64,000 nucleotides of DNA, from positions 75,756 through 139,755 of the forward strand of contig JAKLDG010000001.1 of assembly GCA_022703645.1 (NCBI GenBank), read 5' to 3'. Below the pieces are notes generated by a model. It worked only from the letters and a program-made list of their open reading frames with translations. It was not told where the DNA came from and made no database searches. Of this stretch, positions 19,815-27,512 are shown in pieces. Each line of letters begins with the position of its first letter. Position 1 is the stretch's first letter. The stretch comes from Patescibacteria group bacterium. GTDB lineage: Bacteria; Patescibacteriota; JACPGU01. The translations under genes and the position numbers were made by a program.

Positions 19815-19932
19815 GAAATTTTCATTTCTCAATTCTCAATTCACAATAAATTCTCAATGATTCAATGGTCAAATATTAAGAACTGCAAAATTGTAAAATT
19901 GATTGAAAATTGGAAATTGGAAATTGAAAATT
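19815..19932. repeat. MITE-like AT-rich palindromic repeat (TTTTCAA 7-mer family), full copy
   Basis: Left arm TTCTCAATTCTCAATTCACAAT; right arm GATTGAAAATTGGAAATTGGAAATTGAAAATT, the inverted repeat of the left arm. Nearly identical to the copy at 27393..27512, which is in inverse orientation. Confidence 0.8.
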
Positions 19933-19994
19933 AAAAAAAATTTAGATATATAACATTATTAGTAAGAGTTCCAAACAATTAGAAGGGAATTACT

Positions 19995-20489
19995 ATGTTG
20001 AGTTTAAATCGCGCGCAAATTATTGGGAATTTAACAAGAGATCCAGAACTTCGCTATACTCCAAATGGTCAGGCTGTCGCATCTTTTGCAGTAGCAACAA
20101 ACAGAGTCTGGGTAGATGCATCAGGAGAAAAGAAAGAAGCAGCAGAATTCCACGATGTAGTTACTTGGGGGAAATTAGCGGAAATCTGTGGGCAAATATT
20201 GTCTAAAGGCAGAAAAGTATATATTGAAGGACGTCTTCAAACTAGAACTTGGGAAGGCCAAGATGGGGTAAAGAGACAAAAGACCGAGATAGTTGCTGAA
20301 AACATGTTAGTTTTAGACAAGCCAAAAGAAGGGACTGCGGCAGGTAACGCATATGGCGCTGCAGCAAGCAATAGTGCTCCAGTTAGCGATCCAGGTATCG
20401 GGGGAGTTCCAATGCAAGACAGCAGCGCGTCAGTTGATGTGGGAATGAGTGGAAATGCAGAAGTAAACTTGGATGATATACCATTCTAA
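19995..20489 (+). CDS. ssb: single-stranded DNA-binding protein
   Basis: OB fold (RAQIIGNLTRDPELRYTPNGQ), a Gly/Ala-rich linker and the acidic C-terminal tail DDIPF. Confidence 0.9.
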   Translation: MLSLNRAQIIGNLTRDPELRYTPNGQAVASFAVATNRVWVDASGEKKEAAEFHDVVTWGKLAEICGQILSKGRKVYIEGRLQTRTWEGQDGVKRQKTEIVAENMLVLDKPKEGTAAGNAYGAAASNSAPVSDPGIGGVPMQDSSASVDVGMSGNAEVNLDDIPF

Positions 20490-20516
20490 AAATCACGAAG
20501 CGATTTTTAGAAAATA

Positions 20517-20590
20517 CTAATATCTAAATTCTAAATCCTAAATTTGAAAATTAGAATTTTAGATTTGTTTAGAGATTAGATATTAGTGCT
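20517..20590. repeat. AT-rich palindrome: CTAATATCTAAATTCTAAATCCTAAATTT, loop, AGAATTTTAGATTTGTTTAGAGATTAGATATTAG
   Basis: Seen directly, between ssb and rpsR. Confidence 0.6.
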
Positions 20591-20661
20591 TAGAATTTTG
20601 ACAGTTAACATTGATAAACAGTAATAAAGAAATAATCTTTTAGAAATAATAATATAATCGC

Positions 20662-20868
20662 ATGAAAAACAAAATTTGTGTTTTTTGTTCAAAAGGAATC
20701 AAAGAAGTTGATTATAAGCAGGTAGAAGTCTTAAAAAGATCCACTTCTTTTCTTGGAAAAATCGAAACCAGGAGAAGAACCGGTGCTTGTGCTTATCACC
20801 AAAGACGCCTTGCCCAAGCTATAAAGCGAGCAAGACATCTGGCTTTAGTTCCATATATAAACAGATAG
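20662..20868 (+). CDS. rpsR: 30S ribosomal protein S18
   Basis: CVFCSKGIKEVDYK...AYHQRRLAQAIKRARHLAL. It is in the conserved rpsF-ssb-rpsR cluster. Confidence 0.9.
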   Translation: MKNKICVFCSKGIKEVDYKQVEVLKRSTSFLGKIETRRRTGACAYHQRRLAQAIKRARHLALVPYINR

Positions 20869-20957
20869 AATATTAATAATCTCAAATGTAATATGTTAAA
20901 TGTTAAATCTCTGGTATGGTTTTGATATTTTACATTTAAGATCTAACATAAAAATTT

Positions 20958-24471: not shown

Positions 24472-24476
24472 ATCTA

Positions 24477-25622
24477 TTATTTTGCTTTCTCTCTTTTCAC
24501 CTTTTCTGATAAAGATTTTATGATCTGTCCGAAAGATATCAGGAAGAATGCGAATATTATTATCCAACCGACTATCGGTATTAGACCCAAAATCATTGTT
24601 AGGATCGCACCGATTGCGCAAACCTTCCAATCGATAGGGTATTCTTTTGTTTTATTCATCTGCTTGGTTAGTAGACTACCGATTAGCAGTGAACTTAATA
24701 TTGAAGCGAGTATCAATAACGCGATGTAGATAAGCATGCAAATAATTCCGATGTTTGTTCCGATTGCCGAGAAAATCAAAGCGATAAAGATTACCGGGAT
24801 GATTATCAAGGAAATAAATCCCCAAACTAAGGCCGAAACTGGGCTTGATAGCGCTTTTTGTACGAAGCTCTTTGTTGGCTTAACGCTAAAATATGTGATT
24901 AGGAGCAGTGTCAGGAATAGAGAAATCAGTTTTAATAGGATACTAAATACCGCCATGCCTGTGGTCATCCCATAAATTTTATATTGTTTCTCAGTCTTTT
25001 TGAAATCAATTCCGCCGATGATCTTGGCGTTTGGAGATATAGTAGCTTCTTTGGTTGAAGAATAGATTAATTTACCGCCAATGACAGCGCCGTCTCCAAT
25101 CGTAAGGTTTGCTACACCATCAATCTGTAGGTCTTTTGCTATTTCTCCATTGATAACAATTTTTTCACCGATAACTCTGGCATTTCCAGAAACTTTTCCA
25201 TCGATATTTACCTGACTTCCTGCCGCCACCAAGTCGCCAAAAACGCCCGCATCCTTACTTAGTTTTACCGTTCCACCAACTGCAACCAAGTCTTCAGTAA
25301 CTTTGCCATTGACGATGACATTTCCACCGGCAACCCGGGCGCTTTGTCCGACGTCATTATTTAGTGTTACATTTCCACCAGCAGCAAGCAGGCCTTTTTC
25401 GATATTAGCGTTAATATCAATATTGCCGCCTGCGGTTACGAGATCGCCCAGTACGGCATTGCGGATATCAACATTTGAACCTGCGGTGTAAAGATTGCGA
25501 ACCTTATCATCTTTGCCCACGGTAACACTTCCAGTTTCATCCGGAGTTTTGAAATCAGCAGCAAATGCGATGCTTGGGATTAATAATAAAGAAAGGAACA
25601 CAGCGAAAAGAATCTTCTTCAT
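24477..25622 (-). CDS. secreted polymer-forming (bactofilin-like) beta-helix repeat protein with a C-terminal multi-transmembrane domain
   Basis: Signal peptide, then about 10 G-x-V-x-x-G-x-V repeats (DLVTAGGNIDINANI, DLVAVGGTVKLSKDA and similar), then four transmembrane helices. Confidence 0.5.
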   Translation of the reverse strand: MKKILFAVFLSLLLIPSIAFAADFKTPDETGSVTVGKDDKVRNLYTAGSNVDIRNAVLGDLVTAGGNIDINANIEKGLLAAGGNVTLNNDVGQSARVAGGNVIVNGKVTEDLVAVGGTVKLSKDAGVFGDLVAAGSQVNIDGKVSGNARVIGEKIVINGEIAKDLQIDGVANLTIGDGAVIGGKLIYSSTKEATISPNAKIIGGIDFKKTEKQYKIYGMTTGMAVFSILLKLISLFLTLLLITYFSVKPTKSFVQKALSSPVSALVWGFISLIIIPVIFIALIFSAIGTNIGIICMLIYIALLILASILSSLLIGSLLTKQMNKTKEYPIDWKVCAIGAILTMILGLIPIVGWIIIFAFFLISFGQIIKSLSEKVKREKAK

Positions 25623-25715
25623 TTTTGTTCTGTTAATAATAAAAATATGCTTAAGTTAGTGTTTTCTTGATTATACAGCATTGAAAAAGAGCTGTCAAAA
25701 ATACGGAAAATCAAA

Positions 25716-25745
25716 AGCCGCCGGTTTTTAATAAAACCGGCGGCT
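25716..25745 (-). terminator. intrinsic terminator downstream of groEL
   Basis: AGCCGCCGGTTTT-aat-AAAACCGGCGGCT, with a T-run on the minus strand. Confidence 0.75.
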
Positions 25746-25767
25746 GTTTTGTTCTTTAAATTAATTT

Positions 25768-27381
25768 TTAATATCCAACTTCCTGACTTTTTTCTTTTTT
25801 TTCTGGTATTTCCGCAATCACTGCCTCTGTTGTGAGGAATATTGCTGCAACTGATGCGGCGTTTTCCAGGGCGCTTCTCGTTACTTTCGTCGGGTCGATG
25901 ATTCCGGCCTCAATCATATCGGTATACTTATCTTTTGCGAAATCATAACCCCAGTTTTGGTTAGTATTTTTCTTAATTTCGCCCATGATTTTGCCTGCCA
26001 ATCTTGGTTTCCCAGCATTAGCCGCCATCTGGCGAATAGGAAACTCGAGCGAAGAATTCAATATTTCAATTCCAATCGCCTGATCGCCTTCAATCTTTAG
26101 ATCGACTAAAGCTTTCTTTGCGCGATAAAGCGCTACCCCGCCACCAGGGACTATTCCTTCCTCAACTGCCGCGCGGGTAGCCGCAAGAGCGTCTTCGATC
26201 CTGTGTTTTTTTTCTTTCAGTTCTATTTCAGTAGCAGCGCCAACCTTTATTACTGCTACGCCATTAGATAATCGAGCAATTCTCTCCTTTACTTTTTCTT
26301 TATCAAAATCATTTTTTAATTTCTCTACTTGTGCTTTTAATATTTCAATACGATCTTTAATATCTTTTTTACTGTCGCCTCCTCCAACGATAATCGTTTT
26401 TTCCTTATCACTGGCTACTTTGCGTGCCAAGCCGAGATGAGAGAGCTGGGCAGTTTCCAGTTTTAACCCAGTTTCTTCGGTTATGACAGTCGCACCGGTG
26501 AGTGTCGCAATATCTTCCAGCGAAGATTTCTTGTTATCGCCAAAACCGGGAGATTTGATTGCCAGAGTGTTAAAAGTGCCTCTGATTTTGTTTAAAACTA
26601 ATGTAGTGAGCGCTTCACCATCCAGATCTTCACAGATAATCACGATATCTTTTTTCCCATCGTTTGCGACTTTTTCCAATATTGGCAGTATTTCTTTCAG
26701 GGCGCCGATCTTTTTATTCGTTACTAAAACTGAAACATTTTCATAAATAGCTTCCAGTGTTTGCGTATCGGTAGCCATATAAGGAGCGATATATCCTTGA
26801 TCAATTTTTAACCCTTCCGTATATTCCTTTGAAAGCCCAAAAGTCTGCGATTCTTCAACTGTAATAACGCCATTATTACCCACTTTTTCCATTACTTCAG
26901 CAATCAGTTCGCCAACTTCAGTATTATCTGCAGAGATCGATGCTACTTGAGCGATTTCATTTTTGCTTTTAATTTCCTTGCTCATCCCCTTGAGGAAATC
27001 TTTAATTTCAGCCACACCTTTCTCTATTCCGCGTTTGATTTCCATCGGGTTATTCCCGCTGCTAATCTCTTCCAGCCCTTTCTCAATCATTGCTTGGGCT
27101 AGCAGAGTGGCTGTGGTGGTGCCGTCTCCGGCAACATCATTGGTTTTTTCGGCAACTTCTTTGACCAGCTGTGCTCCCATATTTTCAAATTTATCCTCGA
27201 GCTCTATCTCTTTGGCAATAGTAACACCATCATTCGTTATCACCGGTCCGCCATAACCTTTATCAAACATCACATTGCGGCCCTTGGGACCCAAGGTTAC
27301 TTTCACAGTGTTGGCAAGTTTGTCGATGCCTTTTTTTAGTTTGTCACGTGCTTCTTTGTTGAAAATGATTTTCTTTGGCAT
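25768..27381 (-). CDS. groL: chaperonin GroEL
   Basis: Full GroEL sequence ([15 protein letters not shown] and more). The start is at MPKKII, with a GGAGGT site 5 nt upstream. Confidence 0.95.
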
Positions 27382-27392
27382 AAATACCTCCA

Positions 27393-27512
27393 AAAATTTT
27401 CAATTTACAATTTCCAATTTTCAATCAATTTTACAATTTTGCAATTCTTAATATTTGACCATTGAATCATTGAGAATTTATTGTGAATTGAGAATTGAGA
27501 AATGAAAATTTC
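27393..27512. repeat. MITE-like AT-rich palindromic repeat filling the whole groES-groEL intercistronic space
   Basis: It is the reverse complement of the 19815..19932 copy with only 2-3 mismatches over about 118 bp. Confidence 0.85.

Follow-up and report, generated by a model that had tools for sequence, protein, structure and literature searches.

In this study we examined a 64,000-nucleotide stretch of DNA (hereafter the window) from a Patescibacteria group bacterium (assembly GCA_022703645.1, contig JAKLDG010000001.1, positions 75,756 to 139,755 of the forward strand), in which two near-identical inverted copies of a palindromic repeat, A and B, lie 7.5 kb apart, one directly after the gene for ribosomal protein S6 (rpsF) and the other filling the spacer between groES and groEL. 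We consider it probable that A and B are the youngest pair of a genome-specific, non-coding and non-autonomous family of palindromic repeats, most likely carried as a tolerated passenger, and that the block between them has not been inverted. The family is RPE/ERIC-like, and its heptamer architecture is unusual. Proteobacteria are well known to harbour small palindromic repeats, whereas our searches met with no account of any in the reduced genomes of the candidate phyla radiation (CPR). Three traits that are usually separate are joined here, namely the construction of the arms from 7-nt units, a position flush with stop codons in conserved operons, and in-frame insertion in essential tRNA-modifying enzymes, the last as in Rickettsia.

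The inverted pair

An inverted-repeat search delimited arms at 19810-19932 and 27395-27517 (123 nt, 98% complementary, with a gap of 7462 nt), and local alignment of A with B gave 121 of 123 identical positions with a longest unbroken match of 73 nt, which bears out a preliminary description of this DNA that had reported near-identical reverse-complement copies. Both mismatches fall in the 3' arm (GAACTGC versus GAATTGC, and TTGGAAATTG versus TTGTAAATTG). Identity begins at AGTAAG, and so includes the TAA stop codon of rpsF (19812-19814) or of groES (27513-27515, minus strand), and it terminates precisely at the final heptamer, GAAAATT.

Copy A (19815..19932, plus strand) lies directly 3' of rpsF (19077..19814, plus strand), whose native TAA it abuts and whose product carries a long acidic tail, and it ends 62 nt before the ATG of ssb (19995..20489, plus strand), with which the block between the copies opens. 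Copy B (27395..27512, minus strand) extends from the TAA of groES (27513..27803, minus strand) to 3 nt short of GGAGG, taking up 118 of the 131 nt of the groES-groEL spacer (27382-27512); the other 13 nt, TTTGGAGGTATTT, hold the ribosome-binding site of groEL (25768..27381, minus strand; 537 aa, ATG at 27381), with which the block closes. The preliminary description was therefore also correct in having the second copy fill this spacer up to the ribosome-binding site. Pfam tables of the block list ssb, rpsR, efp, an acyltransferase, a tlyA-like methyltransferase, a PRC-barrel protein, DUF8173 and groEL. Each copy is oriented in the same way within its host operon, rpsF-ssb for A and groES-groEL for B, and the two are mutually inverted only because these operons converge.

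Judged from the sequence, the co-transcription of copy B with the chaperonin operon, which had been asserted outright, is likely, since no terminator-like site was found on the sense strand and the promoter-like match in the 3' arm is weak (9/12). A 310-aa gene with no Pfam match (27823-28755, minus strand) ends 20 nt upstream of groES, and its position is kept in four relatives (L085, L090, L092 and L094). Because this gene is conserved directly upstream, groES-groEL seems to be part of a three-gene unit, with no room for a promoter of its own or a CIRCE element.

A family built from heptamers

Iterated nhmmer searches recovered seven full and three half copies in the window, A and B included, and 19.6 kb of additional flank from the source contig contributed one further full copy, H, located in an ABC-transporter operon. 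The family census and the Pfam scans thus cover about 84 kb (window plus flanks) of a genome of at least 867 kb. Each full element is an imperfect palindrome of about 110-125 bp, in which a 5' arm of four to six degenerate CAATTYY units and a 3' arm of the mirror unit RRAATTG enclose a non-repetitive centre, with termini AAATTTTCAAT...ATTGAAAATTT. The motif CAATTNNCAATTNNCAATT, allowing at most one mismatch, was counted 32 times in the window where 0.13 would be expected (about 250-fold enrichment), from which it follows that the A/B pair is not a chance resemblance. The 7-nt period is specific: among lags 4-11, 17 segments were found at lag 7 and 0-3 at the others.

The remaining full copies of the window are C (23811..23928, plus strand), which spans the tlyA-like/PRC-barrel spacer from TAA through ATG; D (6688..6806, plus strand), in frame inside MiaB; E (37731..37855, minus strand), which begins 1 nt after the TAG of a Germane/Gmad2 gene, its palindrome stem starting 4 nt after that TAG; F (38787..38902, minus strand), directly after the TAA of a DUF456 gene; and G (57518..57626, minus strand), which overlaps the TAA of dut and has a small GC hairpin in its 3' half. 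The half copies all lie in frame within genes: one consisting of the CAATTYY arm only (6417..6482, plus strand) at loop site 1 of MiaB, one in MiaA (8567..8621, plus strand), and one in an Elp3-like radical-SAM gene (43183..43232, minus strand, within 42050..43762). Pairwise identity reaches 98% for A and B at 7.5 kb, 81-82% for either of these with C, which lies between them, and 87% for E and F, which are 1 kb apart, are identical over the 5' 61 nt and differ by one GAAAATT unit; the remaining pairs of the family share 66-79%.

The preliminary description had overlooked this wider setting, in which A and B belong to one family among several heptamer-built repeats found both after stop codons and in frame. 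Other heptamer types in the window are CAACTTA in fmt (15305-15349), CTAAATY after ssb, AAATGAC in lepA (49791-49833) and AATGTCT at 58093-58127. A second family combines AAAAGTK heptamers with a small GC hairpin that follows them (GTGCCTTCGGCAC / GTCGCTTCGCGAC), and has one copy in frame in MiaA (8329..8403, plus strand) and another 5 nt after the efp stop codon (21518..21582, plus strand). A similar GC hairpin is embedded in copies G and H, and its sharing between the two families suggests that the elements are modular. We also observed a TTTTGCA/TTTTGAT tract (TAATTTTGCATTTTGATTTTTGCATTTT, 28 nt) just upstream of thrS (4191-4236) that is found identically at 16636-16670 of L085, a distant relative, in a non-orthologous place. 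At gathering score the window matched no Rfam model (on the element, a plant miRNA model came closest, with an E-value of 0.1), and BLAST against annotated phages gave no match to the element.

Copies within enzymes

In-frame copies appear to lie in permissive loops. In MiaB (6073-7497), conserved blocks align with the structure PDB 7mjz on either side of copy D, and aa 205-247 are left unaligned, amounting to 43 aa where 7mjz has about 11; likewise, compared with PDB 3d3q, MiaA (8173-9123) is longer by the 13-aa insertion that the AAAAGTK element represents. Repeat DNA in the form of half copies or of other heptamer tracts is found in the essential enzymes MiaB, MiaA, the Elp3-like enzyme, LepA and Fmt, and the peptides encoded by such in-frame repeat DNA include ISNFQFSISN and KILNSQFSILNQISN. 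Within open reading frames the sense strand is only ever the CAATTYY strand, as is to be expected because the complementary AAAATTG array runs into TGA. Two 570-aa open reading frames (35056..36768 and 42050..43762) were considered as paralogues and rejected, being a CTP synthase and the Elp3-like radical-SAM protein.

MiaB homologues of related Patescibacteria have three loop sites with inserts that vary in length and are lineage-specific in sequence, the repeat peptides at these sites differing from those of the window. Two homologues (P0129 and P0147) are without an insert at site 2, one relative (L177) has a palindrome of AGTATWA units in its DNA at both site 1 and site 2, and another (L180) has two different direct heptamer tracts at site 2. 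The element-encoded peptide gave only two weak matches in a HMMER scan of 1.84 billion representative proteins; a word-index search with it found no match, and as the same search missed the window's own MiaB, its control failed.

Placement after stop codons

All seven intergenic full copies begin 0-4 nt after the upstream stop codon or overlap it. Downstream boundaries are less regular, with only three of the seven abutting the next start or ribosome-binding site: C and H continue from the TAA through to the next ATG and B continues to the ribosome-binding site, and a gap of 38-62 nt separates A, E, F and G from the start that follows. The C-termini and stop positions of GroES and S6 are those of their relatives and hence ancestral, which shows that the elements follow native stops without truncation and leads us to reject the idea that the element acts as a premature stop shortening either protein. 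Long acidic, lysine- and glutamate-rich C-terminal extensions were noted in S6 (19077-19814) and S16 (17371-17850), that of S6 being common to relatives.

The polarity of A relative to its host gene is shared by six of the seven other full copies, which is not significant. Copy H runs opposite to G, the copy that it most resembles (83% identity in reverse against 62% forward), and a strict rule that all copies are oriented as their host gene was therefore withdrawn.

Origin of the pair

Because identity of 98% extends over the entire unit, one of the two sites would have been written recently from the other, either by insertion of a whole element or by gene conversion between resident copies; recent transposition or gene conversion had been proposed at the outset and is plausible from the near-identity. 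We lean towards short-range copying or conversion as the route, since family similarity falls with distance and neither target-site duplications nor a transposase were found. None of the seven full copies in the window has matching flanks indicative of target-site duplication, and the Pfam tables of open reading frames for the roughly 84 kb scanned contain no transposase and no RAYT / Y1 transposase domain, the sole recombinase being an Xer-like integrase (58199..59179) located 30 kb from the block. Tiny open reading frames of 80-94 aa with a GIY-YIG nuclease domain occur on the source contig left of the window (L179, 17400-17642) and in a relative (L083, 14077-14361); these are the only nuclease-like candidates seen near repeat-rich regions.

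Copies would then settle in transcribed spacers flush with the upstream stop, or in frame in permissive enzyme loops. On the groESL mRNA the element would most likely be a tolerated passenger, and in the predicted fold the base of an AT-rich imperfect hairpin could bring the groES stop near the groEL ribosome-binding site, so that operon expression would be preserved.

Several points weigh against this account. Flush placement at the stop codon in seven of seven intergenic copies suggests targeting or function and is left unexplained by a purely passive model. The preliminary description had called for folding of the spacer RNA, and although an imperfect hairpin is indeed predicted, A and B with their flanks are no more stable than dinucleotide shuffles (z of -0.76 and -0.17), which makes the idea of stop-to-ribosome-binding-site proximity a weak one for these two copies; z-scores from mononucleotide shuffles had overstated their stability and were discarded. 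Furthermore, the scans cover a small part of the genome, and additional near-identical copies or a mobilising enzyme may lie elsewhere, while insertion and conversion are inseparable here because identity reaches both ends of the element. Finally, the criterion by which similar places are grouped is only partly known, and the seven contigs with identical GroEL that bear on the orientation of the block (see below) may be non-independent as assemblies.

Relatives and permissive sites

The groES-groEL spacer differs widely among relatives. Set against the 131 nt and CAATTYY palindrome of the window, it measures 141 nt in L085 (JGI 3300033149, Ga0366834_1002098; 7852-7992), where it contains an unrelated CGGTTTT-type heptamer palindrome (predicted dG -48 kcal/mol) whose predicted fold pairs the GAGGAG ribosome-binding site at the stem base; 127 nt in L094, with a GCGAAT-rich hairpin (dG -35 kcal/mol); 94 nt in L090, with a weak A/T hairpin; and 49 nt in L083 and 9 nt in L092, both with no element. 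A hidden Markov model of the window's element had no match in these relatives, and a GroEL scan of genome contigs returned only relatives at 62% identity or less, none of which contains the element. L085 is richer than the window in tracts of 7- and 8-nt units.

Since both the groES-groEL spacers and the MiaB loops carry different sequences at the same sites, either a small number of permissive sites have been colonised again and again, or gene conversion has overwritten their contents in situ. A broader proposal, which we offer with considerably more doubt than confidence, is that in this Patescibacteria clade (CPR3/Microgenomates-like) heptamer-built palindromes of an undescribed class are written and rewritten at the same permissive sites, namely stop-flush operon spacers and surface loops of essential enzymes, by a copy mechanism that requires neither a classical transposase nor target duplication, A and B being a fresh product of that process; if so, related genomes would carry different heptamer types at orthologous positions. 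The presence of different sequences at shared sites in relatives offers a tractable case for studying element turnover, by re-invasion or gene conversion, and any effect of the elements on protein loops and operon expression in very small genomes.

Tracts of the same unit occur more widely. In IMG/VR viral contigs (L095-L174) we found 82 stretches with at least three CAATTYY heptamers, at GC contents of 0.21-0.68. They are mostly intergenic and close to gene ends (20 sense, 23 antisense), and those within open reading frames are on the sense strand in 10 of 10 cases. Some form hairpins or adjoin other heptamers (GGATAAT, TTCATAA, GTGAGTG), and the neighbouring heptamer types include ones also seen in L085.

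Comparison with known repeats

The literature that we searched on palindromic or heptamer elements in Patescibacteria/CPR yielded nothing specific. The family was compared with better known systems. Rickettsia palindromic elements (RPE) are palindromic repeats inserted in frame in housekeeping genes, where they add a peptide and do not destroy the protein (PMC10969869). Both they and the present elements are palindromes of 100-150 bp, with several families per genome, intergenic as well as in-frame copies, and a small host genome; here too the palindromes can form hairpins, with the reservation given above for A and B, and in-frame insertions are found in genes that remain intact (MiaB and MiaA) and in the Elp3-like gene. 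The differences are the host, which here belongs to the Patescibacteria, the arms of degenerate 7-nt units, the stop-flush intergenic copies and the one-arm half elements; as the hosts are unrelated, sequence homology is not expected.

ERIC and Correia elements carry defined inverted repeats at their termini and give rise to a duplicated TA target. The present family resembles ERIC/IRU and Correia (NEMIS) elements in that these too are imperfect palindromes, about 105-155 bp long, which occupy transcribed intergenic regions, often in operons or at gene 3' ends, and are present on mRNAs, but no target duplication accompanies the elements here. Co-transcribed ERIC and Correia palindromes affect mRNA decay, and Correia RNA is cut by RNase III (PMC10969869). 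As for MITEs (miniature transposable elements with inverted repeats), the family agrees with them in size and copy number (110-125 bp, non-coding, eight full copies in the region scanned) and in having terminal inverted repeats, its arms being inverted CAATT-N2 arrays, but lacks flanking target-site duplications. It differs in the same respect from Chunjie of Geobacter uraniireducens, which is reportedly a MITE of the classical kind, having both terminal inverted repeats and duplicated targets.

REPs stabilise the upstream mRNA and, when close to a stop codon, affect translation termination. REP/BIME sequences share with our elements the form of extragenic palindromes placed after stop codons in operons without target duplication. 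They are, however, GC-rich units of 20-40 nt linked to RAYT proteins, whereas the units described here are AT-rich and about 118 nt long, and neither RAYT nor Y1 transposase domains accompany them in the region scanned.

As outlined in PMC4679880, no class of long simple repeat is commoner in bacteria than the heptanucleotides, for which polymerase slippage has been put forward as the cause; the TAACTGA repeats of Beggiatoaceae, Cyanobacteria and Bacteroidetes in particular are intergenic and lie near start codons. The present family behaves as a heptanucleotide repeat in its lag-7 segments and in the change of unit number between E and F; like cyanobacterial STRR and TAACTGA repeats (PMC4679880), it consists of head-to-tail 7-nt units, mostly intergenic near gene ends or starts, ribosomal-protein operons included, and occasionally inside open reading frames. 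Those repeats are plain direct arrays, whereas here two opposed arrays flank a unique centre in a composite unit that is copied as a whole, A and B being identical across this non-repetitive centre.

Alternative roles for the repeats

One alternative to a tolerated passenger, which we regard as unlikely, is a selected cis-acting RNA, in which the post-stop hairpin would serve as a stabiliser of mRNA 3' ends, an RNase processing site or a translational coupler, and would set the relative output of neighbouring cistrons such as GroES/GroEL or S6/SSB. Its appeal lies in the asymmetry of placement, with the upstream stop abutted in seven of seven intergenic copies and the downstream start or ribosome-binding site in only three, and in the unrelated long hairpins of L085 and L094 at the same spacer, including the predicted pairing of GAGGAG at the stem base in L085. 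Full copies are predicted to fold as long imperfect hairpins (dG -19 to -35 kcal/mol), with C, E, F and H folding well (dG -28 to -35 kcal/mol), and ERIC and Correia provide a precedent for effects on mRNA decay (PMC10969869). What is conserved, however, is not the pairing: none of the 24 pairs of the consensus fold shows a compensatory change, and the constant feature is the CAATT/AATTG core, with the 2 nt between cores varying freely. Tested against dinucleotide shuffles, A and B lack a significant fold, the half copies form none, and copies also sit inside open reading frames. In addition, the spacers of L083 and L092 are empty, H occupies the same kind of place as G despite being reversed, and there is no Rfam match.

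That invariant 5-nt core at a strict 7-bp spacing in two opposed blocks could also reflect a role at the level of DNA, as an array of cooperative binding sites for a ribbon-helix-helix or nucleoid-associated protein, or for a recombinase by which the element would also be copied. Heptad arrays are bound, for example, by the omega repressor of inc18 plasmids. Such a role would accommodate the variation of the intervening 2 nt without compensation, the lack of a strict orientation relative to transcription, and the 82 viral stretches, many of them at GC contents above 0.5 and intergenic in either orientation (20/23). We nevertheless judge it improbable: no candidate protein was identified, copies in essential coding regions and flush with stop codons lack an obvious binding-site logic, and heptamer tracts, the class of long simple repeat met with most often in bacteria, can be produced by polymerase slippage alone (Mrazek et al. 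2007, as summarised in PMC4679880). E and F, moreover, differ by exactly one unit.

Orientation of the block and integrity of the assembly

The preliminary description further proposed that the pair is a substrate for inversion of the 7.5-kb block, and suggested that the alternative orientation be sought in related genomes. The two copies are a formal substrate for recombination, their 123-bp inverted repeats with 73 nt of unbroken identity being enough in principle for RecA-type recombination, but there is no evidence that they are used. The order groES>groEL> <PRC<tlyA<efp<rpsR<ssb<rpsF is common to L085 (GroEL 71% identical), L090/L091 (69%) and L094 (68%), and its presence in three relatives at 68-71% GroEL identity indicates that the present orientation is ancestral; no GroEL relative comes closer than 73% identity (CPR3). 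Among long contigs with identical GroEL, compared with 1.5 kb of flank, seven of seven collapse to one neighbourhood with groES upstream, subject to the possible non-independence noted above, so that only the native order was seen in these contigs and the three relatives. Inversion would moreover swap groEL and ssb between conserved operons, producing rpsF-groEL and groES-ssb, and the block and its surroundings consist of housekeeping genes, with no invertase or other dedicated recombinase in or next to it and only the Xer-like gene in the region scanned. A switch that flips the block is accordingly very improbable, and the proposal of inversion is unsupported. A search of metagenome contigs for the predicted junction (rpsF end, element and groEL ribosome-binding site) gave no match, a result that carries no weight because the element core, present three times in the window, was also unmatched in the same contigs. 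In L092/L093 (14369-15869; GroEL 67%), rpsF-rpsR lies on the strand opposite ssb, a local rearrangement at the very junction that holds copy A in the window.

In a short-read assembly of the same organism (Logan SRR5007146), contigs L002 and L087 end exactly inside both copies and one contig of 7,548 bp corresponds to the block from groEL to ssb; this graph is ambiguous at both copies and thus uninformative on orientation, and its breaks are as expected of a real repeat of about 120 bp. We give hardly any credence to the near-identity being an artefact of assembly or polishing, since, for all that short-read assemblers struggle at the repeat, the copies differ at 2 positions, their flanks are different and sensible, and this neighbourhood of genes recurs on long contigs, from the 244,728 bp of Ga0116154_10000039 (JGI 3300009776, a Patescibacteria MAG) to as much as 867,473 bp. 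Repeats of 120 bp do fragment short-read assemblies, and in this way could mislead binning or synteny analyses.

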